This document shows, piece by piece, positions 1 through 13,454 of a stretch of DNA of 64,000 bases. A program made the position numbers and the translations under genes. The notes under the pieces were generated by a model. That model was given only the letters and a program-made list of their open reading frames with translations. It had not been told where the DNA came from and made no database searches. Source of the stretch: Elusimicrobiota bacterium (GTDB taxonomy: Bacteria > Elusimicrobiota > Elusimicrobia > Elusimicrobiales > UBA9959). The stretch is taken from NCBI GenBank assembly GCA_029267355.1, contig JAJUJA010000002.1:65386-129385 (forward strand). The letters run 5' to 3'. The first letter of the stretch is position 1; each line of letters opens with the position of its first letter.

Positions 1-16
1 TAAAGAAGTTGTTCTC

Positions 17-847
17 ATGAGAAAAAATTTGATGGAAGTAGAGAGACTTTCCAAAAGAGTATTAAAAATCCCATTCGCTGCAGTATTTATTTGTGAAAAC
101 CCGGAAGGTAATAAAATATTACGTGAACTAGAGCCGCCGGAACACAATAAATGGGACAAAGACCGCAGGCCGGATGGCTCTCAGATTATAAAGAACATGG
201 ATGATTGGATAAAAGAAAAATTAAAAGAACTAAGAGAAAACCCCGGCGGCCGAGAAATTGAACTGGCCAGTTTAAGTAAATATCTGCCGGGAGGGTTAAA
301 ATCAAAAACTGGGCATATAAACCCGGAAACTGGAGATAAACAAAAAAAAGGCGATATAGATACAGGGGGAAATATTAAAGGATCATATGAAGAAAAACCA
401 AAAGCGCTTAATTTTGACGGCTCGGCCGAAGCTCCGATTATATACATTCCGGCAATAGAAGAAAGCGGAGATGAGCCTGGCGGGACGGGTTCAGGGAATG
501 CCGGGGGAGGAGGCAGCGGAAAGAGAGGTAATAGAGGGAAAAGAAACAAAAAGCATCCTGACTATAAGTTTAGTTTTAGGTGGATACCATTGAAGAGTAA
601 CGAAGCGATGCTAATTATCCATCCTCACCAAAAAATTAATACCCCTGTTGATGCCTATTTGGCAGCTGCCGGAGAAGATGAGGTTTACAAGCTTAACATA
701 TTAAGTGCAAGATATTCTGACGATAAGCCGGCAGCATTTTCTGGAAGTGCTATTAAACAGATACCACTAGAAGAAAACAAACCATGCAGAATCATCATAG
801 AAATTTCAGGATCAGCACATATTGCTGTAGGTGTGAAACTTATATGA
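17..847 (+). CDS. Hypothetical protein, possibly the C-terminal part of a larger protein that starts upstream of the window
   Basis: The reading frame has no stop between nt 2 and the ATG at 17, so the gene may be 5'-truncated by the window edge. Stop TGA 845-847 overlaps the next gene's ATG (ATGA). It contains a Gly/Lys/Arg-rich low-complexity linker (GGTGSGNAGGGGSGKRGNRGKRNKK). I recognise no family. Confidence 0.5.
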   Translation: MRKNLMEVERLSKRVLKIPFAAVFICENPEGNKILRELEPPEHNKWDKDRRPDGSQIIKNMDDWIKEKLKELRENPGGREIELASLSKYLPGGLKSKTGHINPETGDKQKKGDIDTGGNIKGSYEEKPKALNFDGSAEAPIIYIPAIEESGDEPGGTGSGNAGGGGSGKRGNRGKRNKKHPDYKFSFRWIPLKSNEAMLIIHPHQKINTPVDAYLAAAGEDEVYKLNILSARYSDDKPAAFSGSAIKQIPLEENKPCRIIIEISGSAHIAVGVKLI

Positions 848-1644
848 TTCGAAATAATTTGAAATCTTACCCATTACCGGTTCTTGGCAATGCAGATGAC
901 TACAATGAACCCTTCATAGTAGAAGGTGATTTTCATTTAGCTGGAGAAAAAATAAATATCAGATTGAGGCATTCCATATCTAATAAAGGAATTATAAAAC
1001 TTATTCAGGAAAAAAAGGCGGTATTTGGAAGTCAAATTGAATGCAAGGGGACTTTTTTTAGAAAAATATATACTGGGAACGAAATAACACTGAAAAGTTC
1101 GAGCCTGAAAGATCGTGTTGCTGTTACTCCTTATGTAATAGCCGTGGAAACGATTCGGGAGTTTACTCCGACAAATGTAAATAATGACTATATAGGAGTA
1201 AAATTTAATGTAAACCCAGGAGAATACCTGGCAATCGGCAAAACAGCTTATTTTTCCGCGGACAAAGATTTTGATGTTTCCGAAACTAATATTGGTTCCA
1301 TTATGACGATAAAACCTTCTGAAGACAGCGAGTATTATTCTGCCATTTTTGACAGCGATATAATCGAAATTATGGTTCCAAAGTCAGACATTGAATCATT
1401 GGAAGCTCTTGCATTAAACCCAAAAACAGAAGAAATAATACATGCAATGATTGTACTTCCAGTATTAACGGAGGCTATCAGGAAGTTAAAAAAAACCGAT
1501 TATGACGGAAACAAATGGTTCAATGTCCTTTCTGAAATCACAAATAAAAGAAATATTGACATTAATGAGCCATTTAATGCAGCTCAGCAGTTACTTGATA
1601 AGCCTATAAGCCGCGGTTTAAACTCCTGCACGGAAGATGATTAA
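844..1644 (+). CDS. Hypothetical protein (266 aa), translationally coupled to the upstream ORF
   Basis: ATG at 844 is in frame within the 784..1644 track ORF and forms an ATGA overlap with the upstream stop. AGGTG lies about 14 nt upstream. The protein starts MIRNNLKSYPLPVLGNADDY. I recognise no catalytic motif or family. Confidence 0.55.
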   Translation: MIRNNLKSYPLPVLGNADDYNEPFIVEGDFHLAGEKINIRLRHSISNKGIIKLIQEKKAVFGSQIECKGTFFRKIYTGNEITLKSSSLKDRVAVTPYVIAVETIREFTPTNVNNDYIGVKFNVNPGEYLAIGKTAYFSADKDFDVSETNIGSIMTIKPSEDSEYYSAIFDSDIIEIMVPKSDIESLEALALNPKTEEIIHAMIVLPVLTEAIRKLKKTDYDGNKWFNVLSEITNKRNIDINEPFNAAQQLLDKPISRGLNSCTEDD

Positions 1645-1659
1645 ACTCGGGGAAAATAT

Positions 1660-2457
1660 ATGCCTCAATTAAATAGAGTACTTAAAAACACCAAACTAAC
1701 TGAAATCAGAAAAGCTCTCTCAGCTCTACAAAATCTAAATTCTTATATATCTGGAGACTTCGGATTAACTGACTCAGATTTCCTCCCAGCAGAAGTTGCA
1801 TCATCAGATGAACCTCTGACTTTCGAAAATAACGAGGATAAAAATAAAGAAGATTTGTCTAATTCAATAATGCTGCATAAAAGGCTTAACAAACTTGATC
1901 CGGCGAAAGCATCCGATATCCGACTTTGGACCTATCTGGCCTACCATATAAGCCCTGATTACGTACGGAGGCGCTGGCCAATAAAATACGACAACTTAGA
2001 TTCCGAAAAAGAAGAAGTTAAAAAGGAAGAAGCTAAAAAAATTGCAACACATTGGCTATTCGGAAGCGCTACGGACCGGGCTTTAAGAAGAAATGCACTC
2101 GCCAGGTTGTGGTGGGCGGCCCATCTAACATATGAACCCTGGGAAGATCCTGAGCTGAAACAATTCAAAAAAGACGATTCTTATTTTTATACTAGTATTA
2201 TATTCAGAAATCAAGGAGTCTATTCAGACCTAATGGAAAGAGCCTTTTGCAGGGATAAAAAAATCTTGACAGTAATATTGGACCTTTTTCATGAATATCC
2301 TCAGCTTACCGAGAGAAAATACACACGTGCTTTTGTAAAGCTTGTAAACATAAATTCCGGATTCAAATCACTCGGAGCGCTCACTGTACCTCAACTAAAA
2401 GAGCTGCTGAAGGGAATAAAAGAAAAAGTATTTTCTACCCCCATTGACGAATTATAG
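1660..2457 (+). CDS. Hypothetical protein (265 aa) with Trp/Arg-rich motifs
   Basis: There is a 15-nt gap after the previous gene and a GGGGA RBS-like element. Motifs are RLWTYLAY, RRRWP, THWLFG and LARLWWAAHLTYEPWEDPE. I cannot assign a family with confidence. Confidence 0.6.
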   Translation: MPQLNRVLKNTKLTEIRKALSALQNLNSYISGDFGLTDSDFLPAEVASSDEPLTFENNEDKNKEDLSNSIMLHKRLNKLDPAKASDIRLWTYLAYHISPDYVRRRWPIKYDNLDSEKEEVKKEEAKKIATHWLFGSATDRALRRNALARLWWAAHLTYEPWEDPELKQFKKDDSYFYTSIIFRNQGVYSDLMERAFCRDKKILTVILDLFHEYPQLTERKYTRAFVKLVNINSGFKSLGALTVPQLKELLKGIKEKVFSTPIDEL

Positions 2458-2489
2458 TAACGCGCTTTTTAAATTAATATAATTGATAT

Positions 2490-2903
2490 GTGGCAGACAC
2501 AATCACAAAAAAACATAGAAGCTGGAATATGTCTAGGATTAAGAGCCGAAACACAACTCCAGAAAAAAAGATCCGCAGTCTTTTGCATAGTTTGGGCTAT
2601 AGATTCAGACTGCATAGAAAAGATCTTCCAGGGAAACCAGACATTGTTTTACCGAAATTTAAAACAGTTATTTTTATACATGGATGCTTTTGGCACAAAC
2701 ACAAAGGATGCAAAAGAGCAAACACTCCAAAGTCGAATCTGAATTATTGGATTCCGAAGCTTGCTCGGAATGTAAAAAATGACAAAAAACACATTCGCGA
2801 TTTAAGAAAAAAAGGATGGAAAACCATGGTAATATGGGAATGCACATCAAAAAATCCATCAATACTTAAATCAGTTCTCAGGAAGCTGGAAAATGGAAAA
2901 TAA
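2490..2903 (+). CDS. vsr: Very short patch repair endonuclease (Vsr, T:G mismatch nicking)
   Basis: GTG start. MADTITKKHRSWNMSRIKSRNT...PGKPDIVLPKFKTVIFIHGCFWHKH...VIWECT matches E. coli Vsr end to end as I remember it (MAD..SKNM..I..R.T / PG.PDFV / IF.HGCFWH.H / VWEC). It overlaps the downstream methyltransferase gene by 11 nt. Confidence 0.9.
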   Translation: MADTITKKHRSWNMSRIKSRNTTPEKKIRSLLHSLGYRFRLHRKDLPGKPDIVLPKFKTVIFIHGCFWHKHKGCKRANTPKSNLNYWIPKLARNVKNDKKHIRDLRKKGWKTMVIWECTSKNPSILKSVLRKLENGK

Positions 2904-3867
2904 AAATAAATATTTCAAAGTTGGAAGTCTTTATGCAGGAATAGGAGGAATATGCCGCGCTTTTATAAATGCAGGCGCAAAGGTGGTTTGGGCAAATGAG
3001 TGGGACAAATACGCCTGCATGACATATAGAGAAAACTTTTCTCATCGCCTTTACGAAGAGGATGTTGAAGATTTTATAAAAAAGGACCTAAAAGAAGCGG
3101 AAGACATAGACATTTTAACCTCAGGATTTCCATGCCAGGCCTTTTCAATTGCCGGATACAGAAAAGGGTTTAAAGATGAAAGAGGAAATCATTTTTTTAA
3201 AACTATTGAAGTTTTGAATAAAAAAAGGCCAAAGGCTTTTTTATTTGAAAATGTTAAAAATCTTAGAACTCATGATAACGGCAACACTTATAGGGTTATT
3301 GTGGATTGTATTAAACATGCTAAATACCATTTAATAACGCTGTGTTTAAATACAATGAATCACGGAAATATACCTCAAAACAGAGAAAGGATATATCTAG
3401 TCGGATTCAAAAACAAAGCAGCAGCTGATATTTTTCCTAATCTTGAAAAAAATCCAATACCTTTAACTGTTAAGATCAAAGACTTACTTAAGGAAGGCGC
3501 AGTTGACCCCAAATATTACTACAAAAATTTTGATTGCTATAATCAGCTTAAAGAACAGATCAGGTCTTCTAACACTATTTATCAATGGAGAAGAGTGTAT
3601 GTCCGGGAAAACAAAAAAAATGTTTGCCCGACACTTACAGCAAATATGGGGACAGGAGGACACAATGTTCCCCTAATAAAAGATAGAAAAGGAATAAGGA
3701 AATTAACTCCGGAAGAGTGCGCAAATTTTCAAGGACTTTTCAACTGGAAATTTCCCAATATTGCTGATAGTCATAAATACAAACAAATAGGCAACTCTGT
3801 TAGTATTCCGGTAGTAACAAGAATAGCAAAAGCTATGATTCAAACATTAGAGCAATTTAAAAAATGA
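2893..3867 (+). CDS. DNA (cytosine-5)-methyltransferase
   Basis: Canonical C5-MTase motifs are present: LYAGIGG (I), GFPCQAFSIAG (IV, catalytic Cys), ENVKNL (VI), QNRERIY (VIII) and QIGNSVSIP (X). It sits next to vsr. Confidence 0.95.
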   Translation: MENKNKYFKVGSLYAGIGGICRAFINAGAKVVWANEWDKYACMTYRENFSHRLYEEDVEDFIKKDLKEAEDIDILTSGFPCQAFSIAGYRKGFKDERGNHFFKTIEVLNKKRPKAFLFENVKNLRTHDNGNTYRVIVDCIKHAKYHLITLCLNTMNHGNIPQNRERIYLVGFKNKAAADIFPNLEKNPIPLTVKIKDLLKEGAVDPKYYYKNFDCYNQLKEQIRSSNTIYQWRRVYVRENKKNVCPTLTANMGTGGHNVPLIKDRKGIRKLTPEECANFQGLFNWKFPNIADSHKYKQIGNSVSIPVVTRIAKAMIQTLEQFKK

Positions 3868-5009
3868 ATGAAGAACAATTTTCCCCCTTCTACATCAATC
3901 AGCCAAAAGAGAACAGAGATTACTATATAAAACTGCTCCGCGGTGCAGTCCAAACCAGCATATTATACAGTGAAAACGATAAACCGTACCTTCCATATAG
4001 AGCTGCTGAAAAAATATTTTGTAAAGCTTTTAGAGCTCAGGATGTATCAAGAAAAGACATATCTGTCGACGCTATAAAAAACCAAGAAGGGATAGGAATT
4101 AAAACATTCATCACTGGCGGTAAAAATGGGAAATTCGAAAAAATAGCCGAATTTGTAGACAGAGTTAAATACCCTTTATCTGAAAACAACCCTGAAAAAT
4201 TAATAAAAGAAATTTCAGAATACAGAAATTCAAGAATTGAAGAGGTCAGAAAAGAATTTGATTTAAGAAATATTGTTTACCACTCAATAGTTAGAGCCCC
4301 AGGGAAAATGTACATTTGCGAACAGCCGTTGTCTACTATAAAAACCAACAACTTAACTCTTCAAGGTAAAAAAGGCGCAAATATATATTTTAAAGATACA
4401 TCTTCTAAGTATCTATTTAGTCTTTCTAAACATACTCTATATACACATTTCTTTTATGATTCGCCCTTTGAAGAAATTACTATAAATAAAAACATTGAAA
4501 AAGAACTTCTGAGCTGGACGATACAAGAACTCAGTTCAAAATATGAGACCAAAAAAGAACTCTTAAAAAAATATGAATATGTTTTGCTTCCTTTATACAG
4601 CACGAGACTCGGAGATGTACCTGAAAAAAGCGGCCTTAATCAGTGGAATGCAGGAGGAAGGGAAAGGAATCCAAATGAAGTATACATCCCCATACCAAGG
4701 GTTGTCCATGTAAAGAAACCCAATTTTTTCCCTCCAAAAGACCAGAAATTTATTTTACAAACAGATGACGGATATAAATTTAAAGCAAAAGTATGCCAAG
4801 ATGGATCCAAAGCACTTATGACTGATCACAACAAGGACCTGGGCGAATGGATTTTACGCAAGATTTTAAAAATTCAAGAAGGTGAAAAAGTAACTTTAGC
4901 TCATCTTCAGGCAAAAAATGCTGATACAGTTATTATTTATAAAATTTCTGAGGACACTTATCTTATAAGTCTTGATTCTTTTGGCAGCTTTGCCAAAGAA
5001 TATACATGA
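3864..5009 (+). CDS. Putative type II restriction endonuclease, partner of the C5-MTase
   Basis: ATGA overlap with the MTase stop (3864-3867), the classic position in a vsr-M-R operon. The C-terminal ~130 aa (SGLNQWNAGGRERNPNEVYIPIP...FILQTDDGYKFKAKVCQDGSKALM...LGEWILRKIL) resemble, from memory only, the B3/EcoRII-N/BfiI-C type DNA-binding pseudobarrel. I could not pin a catalytic motif in the N-terminal half. Confidence 0.55.
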   Translation: MNEEQFSPFYINQPKENRDYYIKLLRGAVQTSILYSENDKPYLPYRAAEKIFCKAFRAQDVSRKDISVDAIKNQEGIGIKTFITGGKNGKFEKIAEFVDRVKYPLSENNPEKLIKEISEYRNSRIEEVRKEFDLRNIVYHSIVRAPGKMYICEQPLSTIKTNNLTLQGKKGANIYFKDTSSKYLFSLSKHTLYTHFFYDSPFEEITINKNIEKELLSWTIQELSSKYETKKELLKKYEYVLLPLYSTRLGDVPEKSGLNQWNAGGRERNPNEVYIPIPRVVHVKKPNFFPPKDQKFILQTDDGYKFKAKVCQDGSKALMTDHNKDLGEWILRKILKIQEGEKVTLAHLQAKNADTVIIYKISEDTYLISLDSFGSFAKEYT

Positions 5010-5036
5010 TATTAATATCTCTGGGGAGGTGGTATT

Positions 5037-5468
5037 ATGGCTGGATATTCAAGAATATATTGTATGGGCGAAAAAGGAGGCTTGGGAGGGATTGACGGCA
5101 TTAATCCTATACTTTTTCAGATCCTTGTGGGGGATGCCGGCAGACAATGGTATGAGGTCCATTACTTTGATAAGCACATAAAACCTCTAGCTGGAATCAC
5201 ACGCACGATTCCGGTCCGCCCCGATGACAAAAACGCATTATTAGATGCCTGTATATTATTTTATCCTGATTATTTTTCCAAATGTCCTTCTATAAAAAAA
5301 GTTTCTTCTAACCTCTTAGAGTCATCCCATAACGGCCTTTTAGATTTCAATTTAAACAAAGAGAACATTCCTGAGTACTGGGATAAGTTGCGCAAAGAAA
5401 GCGAACCATTTTTTAAAAAATTTTATATATTAGAGGCAAAACTAAATGAATATAAAAAACAACCTTAG
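5037..5468 (+). CDS. Hypothetical small protein (143 aa), putative partner of the HEPN-GGCT protein
   Basis: A GGAGGTG RBS lies 5-11 nt upstream. The 3' end overlaps the next gene by 23 nt. It has a glycine-rich N-terminus (GEKGGLGGIDG). I recognise no family. Confidence 0.5.
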   Translation: MAGYSRIYCMGEKGGLGGIDGINPILFQILVGDAGRQWYEVHYFDKHIKPLAGITRTIPVRPDDKNALLDACILFYPDYFSKCPSIKKVSSNLLESSHNGLLDFNLNKENIPEYWDKLRKESEPFFKKFYILEAKLNEYKKQP

Positions 5469-6378
5469 CAAATGGTGGGAAACCGCCAGAGCAAATTCAA
5501 TTGCTGATGCTATTGGACATATAAATGAAGCTAAATACAAAAAGAATATTATAGAAAAGTTTTCTTCTTTATCTAAGGCAGCCAATAAATTATGGACAGA
5601 ATACAATTATCAAAACAATCTAACAAAAGGCGATACGGCTTCTTTTGAGGCGCTGCTTCGTAACACTCTCTCTTATGCCGATAAGGCCAAGATAGCAGAC
5701 TCATTAGAATTAATGAATCTGGTAAAATTAGAACCCAAAATAATGGACCATTATTGCTTAAATAAAAATCATTATAACCCGGAAAATATATCCAAAGAGC
5801 ATCAAAAAGCCGCTTCTGAAAAGCACCGGGAACTTATCAAGAAATTTAACATTTGCTTAACTGAAAAAACGGACGAGAAATTGAATCAAATTATTAAAAA
5901 ATTGGCAGACCTTCTTTTTGTGGTCCGGTCGAATATCGCGCATGGAGAAAAAACAATAAACGGACCAGATTTTAAAAAAAATTTTCGGGACAAAATGGTA
6001 TGTGAAACCGCAGTTCCGGTTATGAAATTAATTTTTGATTCGTTTTTTAACCAACCAGACAATCGTTTAGCGGTTTATGGAACCTTAAAACCTGAAGGAT
6101 CCAAACATTACAAGATTTCAAGTATAGATGGCACTTGGATTAACGCCTCTTTAACCGGACGGATATATAGTGGAGATGATAGTCTCCCATATTTCATGTG
6201 GGATTTATCAGGTGATAATATCAAAGTAAAAATAGTTGAATCTTCTAAACTCCCTGACATATGGTTATACCTGGACAATTTTGAAGGCAAATCATACAAG
6301 CGAATATGGGTTTTGGCAAATACTCTAGATAATAAATTGATTGTTGCTAACATATACGCATCGAACAAACTCCAATAA
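5446..6378 (+). CDS. HEPN-domain (Rx4H) protein fused to a gamma-glutamylcyclotransferase (AIG2/GGACT-like) domain
   Basis: The N-terminal ~200 aa are all-alpha-looking and carry R161-SNIA-H166 (VVRSNIAHGEK, nt 5926-5943), the HEPN Rx4-6H signature. The C-terminal ~100 aa carry YGTLKPEG (nt 6076-) and LDNFEG (Glu at nt 6283-6285), the GGCT-fold N-terminal motif and the catalytic-Glu motif. Confidence 0.7.
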   Translation: MNIKNNLSKWWETARANSIADAIGHINEAKYKKNIIEKFSSLSKAANKLWTEYNYQNNLTKGDTASFEALLRNTLSYADKAKIADSLELMNLVKLEPKIMDHYCLNKNHYNPENISKEHQKAASEKHRELIKKFNICLTEKTDEKLNQIIKKLADLLFVVRSNIAHGEKTINGPDFKKNFRDKMVCETAVPVMKLIFDSFFNQPDNRLAVYGTLKPEGSKHYKISSIDGTWINASLTGRIYSGDDSLPYFMWDLSGDNIKVKIVESSKLPDIWLYLDNFEGKSYKRIWVLANTLDNKLIVANIYASNKLQ

Positions 6379-6591
6379 AAATATCGGAAGGATGGGCACA
6401 AATAAAGACGTGTTTTGGTAAGTGAAAAGCTAATTATGTGCTACGCTTTTTCGGCTTATCCTGACTCATTTTGTCACAATTCACAACATATCTCATCCTA
6501 ACATTTGCTGTAAAGGGCATTAGAAGAAGACATAGACGAATCAGGTAATATAAGCGGCCTGTTCTGAGAACGGATTAATTAAGAAGCAGGT

Positions 6592-7269
6592 TTATTCAAT
6601 TGAAAATTTATTGAAAAAAAGCGCAATGCCCAGTATTATAAGGGCTATGCCGGCAATTTTCTCCACATAAAAGAATATGCTCTTTTTGGAAGAAATGAAT
6701 TTGAAAAAAGAGGCGCTGAAAAGCCCCGCTATCAAGAAAGGCACACCCAGCCCCAGCGAGTAAACAAAAAGCATCAAAAATCCCTTATAAACCGCAGCCG
6801 ATGAAGCCAGCATCAAAACGCCGGCGAGAACCGGTCCTATGCATGGAGACCAGCCGAAAGCAAAAGCTGCACCCATAAGAAAAGAGGAAAAAAAGCTTTT
6901 ATCCGCAGTTTTCAAAAAGGCGCGCTTTTCATAATTCAGCAGATTTATATTAAGGAAACCTGCTGTGTGGGCGCCGAGTATAACAAGAGCCAGGCCCATA
7001 ATTTTTTGGAATATGTCCTTATGAGAAAGCAGAAAAGAGCCGATATATGAAGCCGCCGCACCCATAAGGGAAAAGACCAGAGAAAAGCCCAGAAAGAAAA
7101 AAAGCGAAGCGTAAAAAACCTTCTTATGTATTCCGCTTTCGCCTTCCTTAACTATCTGCGAAGCTGAAACGCCCGATATCATTGACAAATAGGCCGGGAT
7201 AAGAGGCAGAACGCAAGGGGAAAAAAAAGTCAAAACTCCGGCCCAGAATGTCAGAACAAATTCTTTCAT
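6592..7269 (-). CDS. ccdA: Cytochrome c biogenesis / thiol-disulfide electron transporter CcdA (DsbD family)
   Basis: Polytopic membrane protein with the two conserved Cys motifs FSPCVLPLIPAY and WSPCIGP. Confidence 0.85.
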   Translation of the reverse strand: MKEFVLTFWAGVLTFFSPCVLPLIPAYLSMISGVSASQIVKEGESGIHKKVFYASLFFFLGFSLVFSLMGAAASYIGSFLLSHKDIFQKIMGLALVILGAHTAGFLNINLLNYEKRAFLKTADKSFFSSFLMGAAFAFGWSPCIGPVLAGVLMLASSAAVYKGFLMLFVYSLGLGVPFLIAGLFSASFFKFISSKKSIFFYVEKIAGIALIILGIALFFNKFSIE

Positions 7270-9384: not shown

Positions 9385-9869
9385 ATTACAGCTTTCTGCC
9401 TGTCATCCGATGAACCGCCGGACGCCATGACTTTCTCGTCGGAAATACCCTTTCCGGTACTGCCGAATCCGAATATGCCTCTCTTAGAAGAAGGCAATTC
9501 CTTTGTCTCTTTAAAGGAAGGATAATAAACCGGTATAACGACAAGCTGGGCGACCTTCTGGCCTTTTTCTATAAGCTGTATCTTATCGGTAAGATTCTGC
9601 ATGCAAACTATTATCTCGCCCCTGTAGCCTTCATCTATAAGCCCGGCGGTAACAATGAGCCCTCTGGATTCTACAGAGCTTTTACCCCATATAAGCCCCG
9701 CGGTTTTTCCAGCAAGAGCTATCGCTATCCCTGTTCTTATCTTAGCGGAGGAATGAGGGGGTATTTCTGTTCTCTCTATTGCAAAAATATCTGCGCCGGC
9801 ATCATTGTCATAAGCCCTTTTAGGAAGTACCGCATCATTGCTGAGTTTTTTGACTTTAACTTTCATCAT
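9381..9869 (-). CDS. dut: dUTP diphosphatase
   Basis: dUTPase motifs AGADIFA, GLIDEGYRGEI and the C-terminal RGIFGFGSTG. Confidence 0.9.
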   Translation of the reverse strand: MMKVKVKKLSNDAVLPKRAYDNDAGADIFAIERTEIPPHSSAKIRTGIAIALAGKTAGLIWGKSSVESRGLIVTAGLIDEGYRGEIIVCMQNLTDKIQLIEKGQKVAQLVVIPVYYPSFKETKELPSSKRGIFGFGSTGKGISDEKVMASGGSSDDRQKAVI

Positions 9870-9982
9870 TTCCTCCGAAATCGGCCGAGGCCGTGAAAAT
9901 ATTCTATCATATTTTGGGTTATTATTTCCCGCTTGCGAACATTGCCCAAATAAGCATATCTTAAAAAAGTCAGCCGTATATA

Positions 9983-10081
9983 TAGTTAACTTATGTTAAC
10001 CATAAGGAAATATAGGGTATTTAGATAAAAGGGTATTGAAAAGAATAGAATGGTATGCTATCATAGTTAACATAGGTTAAT
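9983..10081 (+). promoter_or_regulatory. Two copies of an 18-nt GTTAAC-containing motif bracketing a sigma70-like promoter upstream of the HTH gene
   Basis: TAGTTAACTTATGTTAAC (9983-10000) and TAGTTAACATAGGTTAAT (10064-10081) are identical at 15/18 positions. TTGAAA (10036-10041), a 17-nt spacer and TATCAT (10059-10064) form the promoter. ATG at 10086. Confidence 0.35.
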
Positions 10082-10085
10082 ATAA

Positions 10086-10397
10086 ATGGAAAAAGAATTT
10101 CTTTCTATACCTGAATACGCCAAAAGAATAGGTATAAGCAGAATAGCTGTATTCAAGCAAGTAAAAAAGGGTAAAATAGAGGCAATAAAGGTGGGAAGGA
10201 ACTGGATTATCCCTGTTGATAAAAATCATACATACAAACAACATATCAACAAAAATGAGTTATCAACAGGCTTCCATAAGGGAAAAAAAGAAGATATAAA
10301 CAAAAACAGCGTCTTTGTGAATAAAAATGTTAATAACTCTACAGAAACCCTTGACAAGTTAATAGATGACAAGATGGAAGATATGGGCTGGGATTAA
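10086..10397 (+). CDS. Excisionase-family (MerR-like) helix-turn-helix DNA-binding protein
   Basis: N-terminal LSIPEYAKRIGISRIAVFKQVKKGKIEAIKVGRNWIIP is typical of the HTH_17/excisionase type. The C-terminal tail is low-complexity. Confidence 0.7.
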   Translation: MEKEFLSIPEYAKRIGISRIAVFKQVKKGKIEAIKVGRNWIIPVDKNHTYKQHINKNELSTGFHKGKKEDINKNSVFVNKNVNNSTETLDKLIDDKMEDMGWD

Positions 10398-10452
10398 CCC
10401 TTCTACAATAGGAAATATACCAATAGCAGCTTGTTTATTATATAATTGACTT

Positions 10453-11286
10453 ATGAATGTAAAGAATACTATACCTTTTATACTGCTTATTGCTTTACCC
10501 AAAACAGCTTTGCCTTTATGGAACGATTTTTCTCTTACCTCCGGCTCAAATGAATTTGCGCGAATAGAGAGCAATTTCGCTTCAAACATAAGCACAAGAG
10601 TTGTGGCCGGAATAGGCGCCTCAGCGTATAAAGAGGAAAAACATGACTATGTTTACGCTCTGAGATTTCCCGTGAGCGTCTTCATAGGCAGAAGGGCCAT
10701 GCTGTCGGCTAAACCGTATTTCTATCCTGCTGACGCTCAAGGATCCTTTGCCCAGGGATTGAGAACTTCCATTTCATATCTTACCGAGAATCCTCAAAAT
10801 GAAACTTCAGCCACATATTTGTTTTCTGTTTCTCATCAGCGCCAGCGGCTTTCATCTTACGGCCAGAAAGATTTTTCATCAAACTGCGCAGAACTGTCCA
10901 TAGAAAAAAACTTCTATGATCAGTTTTTTCTTCTGGCCTCGGCCGGAGCGCTGTCTCATTCCGCTTTTTCAGCAACGCCTCAGAAGAATTATGCTGAAAC
11001 GCAGGATATCATTTCACTTAACACAGGCGCCTTCTTAAATGACGCGGTTAATTCCAAGCTCGGCCTGCAGTTTGCCAGAAGCTTCAGGCCGGATTTTGAC
11101 AGCTATATCTATGCGGGCTATGAAAAAATAAACGGCCGTTTCTCTGAATACAATTCATGGCTTCTGGGACTGAGAGTAAATTTTTCAGAAAAAAACTTCG
11201 CTAATTTTTCGTATAATTATTTAGACAGCCGCATCGGACGGTCAAAAATTTATTACAGGGCGGGAATAGGACTTTTTTTCAAATGA
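10453..11286 (+). CDS. Putative outer-membrane beta-barrel protein
   Basis: N-terminal signal-like segment, alternating-hydrophobicity segments, and an aromatic-rich C-terminus (YYRAGIGLFFK). No specific family recognised. Confidence 0.4.
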   Translation: MNVKNTIPFILLIALPKTALPLWNDFSLTSGSNEFARIESNFASNISTRVVAGIGASAYKEEKHDYVYALRFPVSVFIGRRAMLSAKPYFYPADAQGSFAQGLRTSISYLTENPQNETSATYLFSVSHQRQRLSSYGQKDFSSNCAELSIEKNFYDQFFLLASAGALSHSAFSATPQKNYAETQDIISLNTGAFLNDAVNSKLGLQFARSFRPDFDSYIYAGYEKINGRFSEYNSWLLGLRVNFSEKNFANFSYNYLDSRIGRSKIYYRAGIGLFFK

Positions 11287-13084: not shown

Positions 13085-13098
13085 AATTCCATTTATTT

Positions 13099-13454
13099 AA
13101 GCGGCGGACTGTACCCCGGATTCTGTCAGCCTTGCGGCCGGCTGTCATTTATCTGAGCGGATTACTCTGCGCTGCGCGTAAAAACGCGCGCGGCAAGGGG
13201 CCTGCGCATATTTATCCTTGCTCCACGCGGGGTTTTCACTGCCTCCGGCGTTGCCGCCGGAGCGGTGCGCTCTTACCGCGCCTTTTCACCCTTACCCGCC
13301 GTTAAGGCGTTGGCGGGCGGTATATTTTCTGCTGCACTTTCCGTTGCCGCCGGGTTACCCCTGCGGCCCCCGGTCTTTCGACCGGCGCGTTCCCTTGAGG
13401 AGTCCGGAAGTTCCTCCGCGGCTTAAAGCCGCGGCGACAGCCCATCCGCCGCTT
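13099..13454 (-). ncRNA. rnpB: RNase P RNA (bacterial type A-like)
   Basis: The reverse complement reads AAGCGGCGGAUGGGCUGUCGCCGC...GAGGAACUUCCGGACUCC...GGUAAGGGUGAAAAGGCGCGGUAAGAGCGCACCGC...GGAGCAAGG...ACAGAAUCCGGGGUACAGUCCGCCGCUU. This is collinear with E. coli M1 RNA conserved regions as I remember them. The 5' and 3' ends pair to form P1. Confidence 0.9.

Follow-up and report, generated by a model that had tools for sequence, protein, structure and literature searches.

PrrC is kept latent and is released when a phage disables the restriction-modification (R-M) system. Several families of HEPN proteins are embedded in R-M operons, including PrrC/RloC and ApeA, which are Rx4-6H effectors encoded within or beside such operons (PMC3710099, Table 1). 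Here, we analysed a 64,000-nucleotide (nt) stretch of DNA from an Elusimicrobiota bacterium (contig JAJUJA010000002.1, positions 65,386 to 129,385 of the forward strand), hereafter the window, in which an R-M operon is followed by two overlapping open reading frames (ORFs). The small gene (5037-5468, forward strand) encodes 143 amino acids (aa), and the large gene (5446-6378, forward strand) encodes a 310-aa fusion of an HEPN-like domain and a GGACT domain. On the sequence evidence, both are real genes. We see about an even chance that the pair is a horizontally mobile conflict module, likely defensive and resembling abortive infection, at the 3' end of the R-M operon.

The large gene resembles the genes of PrrC/RloC and ApeA in its position, with R-M genes preceding it in the window and at three other loci. 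The proteins themselves differ. PrrC/RloC carry an ABC-ATPase domain, whereas Pfam detected no ATPase domain in the large protein; the N-terminal beta-rich domain of ApeA is not found in it either, and neither an ApeA nor a PrrC model was matched in PADLOC or Pfam. In turn, the GGACT domain and a small partner that occurs by clade are known for none of PrrC, RloC and ApeA. R-M-linked HEPN effectors are known; the gamma-glutamyl enzymatic head and the partner domain are new here. A second comparison is offered by DzbB of Dazbog, reportedly a system of Millman et al. from 2022. The C-terminal end of the DzbB model PDLC03836 (the last ~50 positions, 285-334 of 341) was matched by the Rx4H-containing region of 50 of 60 standalone relatives of the large protein's N-terminal domain (best E 9e-6). 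The similarity is, however, a short C-terminal stretch found in remote relatives only; the large protein had no DzbB match at E <= 1, and no DzbA (DUF262) partner accompanies it. In HEPN-MNT and other type II toxin-antitoxin systems, as in the window, a small upstream gene is translationally coupled to an HEPN-type protein, but neither a Pol-beta-type structural neighbour nor a G[GS]...DxD motif was found for the small protein.

The C-terminal region of the large protein (residues 206-310; 6061-6375, forward strand) was assigned to the GGACT/AIG2-like gamma-glutamyl(amine) cyclotransferases because Pfam, a profile search of the PDB and Foldseek agreed, and because the YGTL motif and E280 are conserved. 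The Pfam match to PF06094 was marginal (23.0 bits against a cut-off of 22.8), and about half of the homologues of the large protein carry a precomputed match to the same family. A profile of the large-protein family searched against the PDB matched Bacillus subtilis YkqA (2qik, 1.8e-6), as well as human GGACT via VYGTLK. In this search, YGTL was aligned to the VYGTLK of both proteins, and LDxFE, which contains E280, to the LDDFE of human GGACT, of which the E82Q mutant has been solved (3jud; E82 by our own count). An AlphaFold2 (AF2) model of the large protein was obtained with a predicted local distance difference test score (pLDDT) of 94.4 and a predicted template modelling score (pTM) of 0.92. 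The top Foldseek matches of this model in the PDB were 1vkb, 2qik, 3jub, 3juc, 2g0q and 1v30, with a probability of 1.0 and, on single-domain targets of the GGCT fold, template modelling (TM) scores of 0.54-0.59; the best matches comprise mouse and human GGACT, YkqA, plant AIG2-like proteins, GGCT and ChaC.

Conservation of the large protein was assessed on its homologues, 48 of which share the same architecture and about the same length. An alignment of 39 full-length homologues (31-47% identity, 36% mean column identity) revealed that Y211, D277, F279, E280 and G281 are invariant in the GGACT domain, as are R161, S162, N163, I164, H166, G167, E168, K169 and T170 in the N-terminal domain. The G, T and L of the substrate-pocket motif Y211-G-T-L (6076-6087, forward strand; Y211 codon 6076-6078), which lies within YGTLKPEG, are at least 90% conserved. 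The predicted catalytic Glu is E280 (codon GAA, 6283-6285, forward strand), within LDNFEG. The domain is a genuine GGACT/AIG2 domain with an intact active site, as judged by its sequence and predicted fold. In its fold, YGTLK pocket motif and catalytic Glu, the large protein agrees with the GGACT/AIG2/YkqA/ChaC proteins, but those known so far are metabolic enzymes that stand alone or, in the case of YkqA, are fused to another domain. To our knowledge, none has been described in fusion with an Rx4H domain or in a defence locus.

The N-terminal region (residues 1-205; 5446-6060, forward strand) is all-helical in the AF2 model. In HEPN domains, the Rx4-6H motif closes core helix 3 and reaches into the loop that leads to helix 4, an insert is located between helices 2 and 3, and the residue after R is polar, mostly N, D or H (PMC3710099). 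In the model of the large protein, an insert of ~85 residues, composed of short helices, comes after helices 16-30 and 35-56; helix 143-165 then ends at R161-A165, H166 is placed in the loop, and the last helix spans 178-200. The Rx4H motif R161-S-N-I-A-H166, in the context VVRSNIAHGEK (5926-5943, forward strand; R161 is CGG at 5926-5928 and H166 is CAT at 5941-5943), therefore takes the canonical HEPN position in this predicted structure, as read from the secondary structure of the model. The residue after R, S162, is invariant and polar, although not N, D or H.

A search with a profile of the N-terminal domain retrieved ~80 standalone proteins of 150-175 aa (a family of ~155 aa) with the pattern W...F..F...W.AFNALY ... 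LYQVRCNLFHGxK ... RD. In 60 of these relatives the R, N and H are invariant (R-x-N-L-F-H), and the residue after R is Cys. As the initial search profile held two of the standalone sequences, the profile comparison with hhalign was redone without both. The 39 N-terminal domains and the 60 standalone proteins were then aligned over 131 columns with a probability of 95.9% (E 6e-9), ALNxLW pairing with AFNALY and VVRSNIAHGEKT with YQVRCNLFHGGK. The only Pfam family matched by these relatives was MauJ (PF17419), a family of unknown function (11 of the 60; best E 9e-7, close to the gathering score); the large protein itself, in contrast, had no MauJ match. For one standalone relative, WP_254172881.1, the NCBI name is "HEPN domain-containing" and the UniRef name "Apea-like HEPN". 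Because of the homology to the standalone Rx4H family and the position of the motif in the model, we call the domain HEPN-like, with a probably catalytic Rx4H, and do not file it as a proven member of the HEPN group.

Foldseek against the PDB returned no match to the N-terminal domain among the top 50 hits listed (down to E = 0.55), and sequence searches of the PDB with the profiles of the N-terminal domain and of the standalone family gave noise or nothing. A domain that no HEPN model or solved HEPN structure matched might not be a nuclease at all. It could be a helical ligand- or substrate-binding or regulatory unit, leaving the GGACT domain as the sole catalyst, for example in degrading a gamma-glutamylated small molecule or signal, with the small protein as co-factor or carrier. 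HEPN-type domains attached to nucleotidyltransferases do serve as substrate-binding modules (PMC3710099), and the enzymes that recurrently join the module are all gamma-glutamyl hydrolases or cyclotransferases (GGACT, AIG2_2, ChaC and a poly-gamma-glutamate (PGA) hydrolase). The non-catalytic HEPN versions have, however, lost Rx4-6H (PMC3710099), while here the R, the next polar residue and the H are invariant across the 39 homologues, the R and H are kept in 60 distant relatives, and the motif is canonically placed in the AF2 model. We therefore consider a non-nuclease N-terminal domain rather unlikely.

An earlier note on this DNA, written from the sequence alone, had read VVR161-SNIA-H166-GEK as an Rx4H signature of an HEPN RNase and the C-terminal region as a GGCT/GGACT domain with its catalytic Glu. 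The signature is present and the C-terminal assignment was borne out by profile and structure searches; the HEPN assignment gained the conserved motif, its position and the standalone family, but no curated match. Likewise, the profile and AlphaFold/Foldseek comparisons that it had proposed succeeded for the GGACT domain, while the N-terminal domain had neither a curated HEPN match nor one among the top 50 Foldseek hits listed, and the small protein no structural neighbour in the PDB or BFVD.

At L104-L108, the standalone relatives are accompanied by recurring unannotated partners of their own, none of which is the small protein; a relative from Planktothrix has a 250-aa partner protein with a 4-nt overlap, and 103-aa and 138-aa neighbours occur on other contigs. 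Furthermore, two neighbours of homologues (L019 7498-8559 and L002 12589-13707, the latter on the reverse strand) contain Rx4H-like motifs of their own (YRVRSTLLHEGH and IRNSLAHLEP). These have no PADLOC match and may be further HEPN-type genes within the islands that hold the homologues.

To identify the genes that accompany the small gene, 80 metagenome loci seeded with the small protein were scanned with hidden Markov models (HMMs) of the domains; many of the contigs are short, so that the proportions are rough. Of the 28 loci flanked by 1 kb or more on each side, 12 encode a fused HEPN-like and GGCT protein, 2 encode the domains as split genes, none has one domain and 14 have neither; both domains lie on the strand of the small gene in half of them (14 of 28). 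With at least 1 kb downstream (45 loci), the corresponding counts are 17 fused, 3 split, 6 with one domain and 19 with neither. Intergenic gaps are about -13 to +4 nt in most small-gene loci. The order of the window, HEPN-like followed by GGACT, occurs in 12 loci including the window itself, and nine complete loci show the permuted order, GGACT followed by an Rx4H domain (YYYQVRSNxxHRGK) in which the R and H are also present. The GGACT half of the permuted fusion matches the GGACT domain of the window (91.5%), and its Rx4H half the standalone family (95%). Compared directly by hhalign with the N-terminal domain of the window, the permuted C-terminal domain gave a motif-level match only (34%), and the link between the two is significant only via the standalone family (95-96%).

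The same domains were also found in other arrangements. The split loci include the order small, HEPN-like, GGCT (L087) and the order GGCT, small, HEPN-like/GGACT fusion (L084), and in some loci the small gene has a GGCT-only partner of the AIG2_2 type. In the protein P0203 (684 aa; L113 6001-8055), the small domain is fused to Gamma_PGA_hydro (PF05908, 1.4e-38), the HEPN-like domain and GGACT; its gene lies on a conjugative element, with genes for a relaxase, a TraG/TrwB-type coupling protein and a transposase on its flanks. P0320 is composed of AIG2_2, GGACT and the small domain. A third fusion, P0224 (806 aa; L114 209-2629), places the small domain at the N-terminus, followed by an unidentified region and an AAA_5 ATPase domain, a position that is consistent with a sensor or reader role of the small domain. 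Finally, one homologue of the large gene is preceded by a ChaC gene at a distance of 63 nt. The GGCT domain is thus tied to the Rx4H domain and the small protein in four independent ways, namely fusion in both orders, split genes, a four-domain fusion and an adjacent ChaC gene, and such a comparative signal usually marks a real functional system.

Among the remaining observations on these loci, the AAA_5 domain of P0224 looks McrB-like by eye, on a contig too short to show whether a McrC partner follows. No PGA hydrolase or McrB-like gene was found among the fetched small-gene loci. Three loci have the look of decayed copies. A permuted fusion at L044 4346-5251 is broken into two ORFs, the small gene of L030 is followed by an HEPN-like remnant of only 50 aa (733-882), and at L021 8001-8465 the small gene is on its own in an island that also holds Type ISP R-M, PemK and transposase genes.

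The module is therefore joined by gamma-glutamyl-cleaving enzymes whose folds are unrelated, namely GGCT-fold proteins and the PGA hydrolase, which indicates a gamma-glutamyl-linked substrate or ligand. A wider reading, which we hold only tentatively, is that these proteins form a new class of prokaryotic conflict system built on gamma-glutamyl chemistry, in which a small sensor or adaptor with no recognisable relatives would control effectors combining a nuclease-like Rx4H domain with a GGCT-fold enzyme or a PghP-type Zn hydrolase. Removal or destruction of a gamma-glutamyl-linked molecule would then execute or gate immunity or toxicity. The target might be a protein bearing a gamma-glutamyl group, for which even the small protein's own invariant N-terminus is a possibility, a gamma-glutamyl metabolite such as glutathione, or a gamma-glutamyl modification made by phage or host.

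The small protein has 63 close homologues, 36 of which were aligned (51% mean column identity), and clustering at 50% identity divides its family into 262 clusters among the 1.8 billion protein representatives of the library searched. All aligned homologues start with M-A-G, and the invariant residues are M1, A2, G3, D20, N23, G32, R36, Q37, W38, Y43, D70, C72, F75, P77, F80, W115 and R119. The AF2 model (pLDDT 90) depicts an alpha/beta domain whose first strand leads into a Gly-rich loop. No match was found in Pfam, NCBIfam, PHROGs or PADLOC, and Foldseek against the PDB and BFVD returned nothing better than E ~0.6-1.2. A minimal nucleotidyltransferase (MNT-like) identity was ruled out, given that both a nucleotidyltransferase structural match and the G[GS]...DxD motif are missing. 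Cys-dependent catalysis, for instance by a transglutaminase, was likewise ruled out, as none of the His residues is invariant and P0232 and P0228 have Leu in place of Cys72. An enzymatic role is not favoured because of the missing invariant His and the loss of C72 in distant members, and the conservation pattern fits a binding or regulatory role better.

The neighbourhoods of the large gene were then compared. At L111 it lies 76 nt after hsdM-hsdS-hsdR, with an integrase nearby; at L109 it is joined to a C-terminal piece of HsdR, and at L013 an in-frame HsdR remnant lies upstream. Other neighbours encode SoFic, SIR2-like and TmtA/Mko-like proteins, together with PIN-like and HNH-like ORFs (by eye only) and a weak match to a zeta-toxin-like kinase. 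The defence-type context implied by the earlier note is supported by these homologues, which are found after type I R-M genes and near SoFic, SIR2 and Mokosh/Tmt-like genes. The hosts are Ignavibacteria, Verrucomicrobia, Elusimicrobia, Bacteroidetes, Acidobacteria, Thermotogae, Desulfobulbaceae, Alcaligenaceae, Gemmatimonas, Nitrospirae, Rubrobacteraceae and Myxococcota, with one locus each. This scatter of single loci over ~12 phyla indicates that the gene spreads horizontally.

Two further explanations bear on this context. The first is that the proteins serve housekeeping or metabolic gamma-glutamyl turnover and stand next to R-M genes by chance, without a role in conflict. The JGI annotation of homologues as "GGCT/AIG2-like protein YtfP" would agree with it, as would the homologue that adjoins ChaC and ABC transporter genes and the standalone relatives of the N-terminal domain that lie among housekeeping genes. 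The distribution is, however, sporadic, with single genomes across many phyla; the pair of the window lies in a low-GC island; the gene recurs directly behind R-M genes and close to SIR2, SoFic, integrase, transposase and conjugation genes; and no conserved metabolic neighbours were seen in the homologue loci. A housekeeping enzyme is accordingly the most improbable of the explanations considered here. The second, which we regard as very unlikely, is an addiction, stabilisation or anti-defence module that serves a mobile element or the R-M cassette and not the host. This would suit the position of the large gene at the 3' end of R-M operons and the four-domain fusion on a conjugative element with relaxase, TraG and transposase; against this, neither protein has a homologue in 2.9 million viral contigs, and such a module is indistinguishable from defence on sequence alone.

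Several observations weigh against the interpretation of the pair as a conflict module. The defence-island context is suggestive and not proof, and some standalone relatives of the N-terminal domain have housekeeping genes as neighbours. No curated HEPN model of Pfam, NCBIfam, PHROGs or PADLOC matched the large protein or its N-terminal domain. Moreover, of 19 genomic loci with the large gene, 17 lack the small gene and only 2 have it, among them L002 from Ignavibacteria, so that the small protein is not needed by the large protein in general. Half of the small genes, in turn, have other or no recognisable partners. In a neighbour-joining tree, large proteins with a small partner fall mainly in two clades, and the pairing is facultative and clade-specific. 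At large-gene loci without the small gene, no alternative conserved upstream partner was found and the neighbours are variable.

The other neighbours of the small gene include a metallophosphatase, a DNA methyltransferase and, on marine contigs, a Zn-ribbon-like 109-aa protein and a 70-aa protein. About ten small-gene loci from marine metagenomes (L050-L056, L058, L061, L063 and L074) have no HEPN-like or GGCT neighbour. A conserved Cys-rich protein of 106-109 aa is encoded upstream in these, with the 70-aa protein in addition in eight, which looks like a different three-gene arrangement.

A facultative partner is difficult to reconcile with a classical type II toxin-antitoxin system, in which the large protein would be a constitutively active toxin and the small upstream protein its antitoxin. 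The upstream position of the small gene, the 23-nt overlap, which implies translational coupling, the equally tight spacing in other loci and the occurrence of the module on islands and mobile elements all fit such a system, and an HEPN toxin with an upstream antitoxin is a known type (HEPN-MNT; PMC3710099). Yet the small gene is missing from 17 of 19 genomes with the large gene, and a toxin left unneutralised ought not to be tolerated there. Mean column identity is also higher in the small protein (51%) than in the supposed toxin (36%); antitoxins are usually less conserved than toxins. The small protein has no DNA-binding domain recognisable by Pfam and no match to a known antitoxin type, P0203 and P0320 carry its domain in cis with effector domains, and it is also paired with unrelated proteins. 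The solitary large genes, the higher conservation of the small protein and the cis fusions weaken the plain toxin-antitoxin explanation, which we therefore regard as unlikely. Of the two-gene module proposed in the earlier note, what stands is that both genes are real and linked to HEPN-like and GGCT domains, whereas they do not form an obligate unit. Similarly, its toxin/partner or sensor/effector pair is upheld as a functional linkage, while the simple toxin-antitoxin form of it fits poorly.

Returning to the conflict module, the large protein may be an R-M-linked latent effector with a regulatory partner. The HEPN-like domain would act as a metal-independent RNase using R161 and H166, as suggested by its conserved motif and the AF2 model, and the GGACT domain is predicted to cleave a gamma-glutamyl-amide with a free alpha-amine, releasing 5-oxoproline. 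In the clades that have the small gene, the small protein would be a regulatory subunit, either a sensor or an inhibitor, that keeps the effector latent or directs it, with translational coupling providing a fixed ratio of the two. By analogy with PrrC, the trigger might be phage infection or failure of the neighbouring R-M system, in response to which the effector would cleave RNA and break down a gamma-glutamyl-linked molecule. Candidate substrates with a free alpha-amine are glutathione, gamma-glutamyl-amines or isopeptides, and the ends of poly-gamma-glutamate.

We know of no described defence, toxin-antitoxin or abortive-infection system that uses a gamma-glutamyl cyclotransferase. PADLOC 2.0 has no model for the small or the large protein, the HEPN survey does not mention glutamyl enzymes (PMC3710099), and no link between HEPN or phage defence and gamma-glutamyl cyclotransferase was found in the searchable literature. 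The lone literature match for HEPN and AIG2 was the accession number AIG26831, which is irrelevant. Within PADLOC and the searchable literature, the combination of HEPN-like domain, GGACT domain and small protein is undescribed, in agreement with the earlier note, which knew of no defence system with these domains. If the module is validated, bacterial immunity would gain a new enzymatic activity and, with gamma-glutamyl linkages, a new class of target. Roles would also follow for two orphan families, that of the small protein (262 clusters) and the MauJ/DzbB-like Rx4H family.

The pair is the last member of an operon that closes a defence island (17-6378, forward strand) of eight ORFs, all on one strand and overlapping or closely spaced. 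The GC content is 33-39% over positions 1-6500, compared with 41-46% in the flanks, and opposite-strand housekeeping genes begin at 6592. The small and large ORFs overlap by 23 nt, as read from the sequence. A Shine-Dalgarno-like GGAGGTG (5025-5031, forward strand) precedes the small gene with a spacing of 7 nt between GGAGG and ATG, and a GAGG lies ~10 nt 5' of the ATG of the large gene. The small gene starts 27 nt after the end of the restriction endonuclease (REase) ORF at 5009. The 143-aa ORF, its ribosome-binding site, the overlap and the distance to the REase stop were all recovered as first described.

The type II R-M operon (2490-5009) is encoded on the same strand as the pair. It comprises Vsr (2490-2903; Pfam Vsr 3e-32), a Dcm C5-methyltransferase (2893-3867; Pfam DNA_methylase 5.7e-75) and an NgoFVII-type REase (3864-5009; Pfam RE_NgoFVII_C 3.3e-18, PADLOC REase_II 2.2e-71), all on the forward strand. 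Upstream, three candidate defence genes, PDC-M33 A, B and C (17-2457, forward strand; PADLOC 2.1e-26, 1.2e-52 and 2.2e-34, respectively), form the 5' part of the low-GC island that is shared with the R-M operon and the pair. The third of these ORFs also matches Pfam DUF6339. The PDC-M33A match covers the C-terminal half only (profile positions 335-623 of 627), showing that this gene is cut by the start of the window.

Two features outside the island were also noted. Rfam RF00010, the bacterial RNase P RNA class A, was identified at 13096-13453 on the reverse strand (220 bits), and this RNA accounts for the GC-rich stretch and the spurious ORFs around these positions. A second low-GC stretch (~36%) at 9500-10500 may be a mobile-element remnant; within it, the N-terminus encoded by the ORF at 10086-10397 resembles an excisionase/MerR-type helix-turn-helix.

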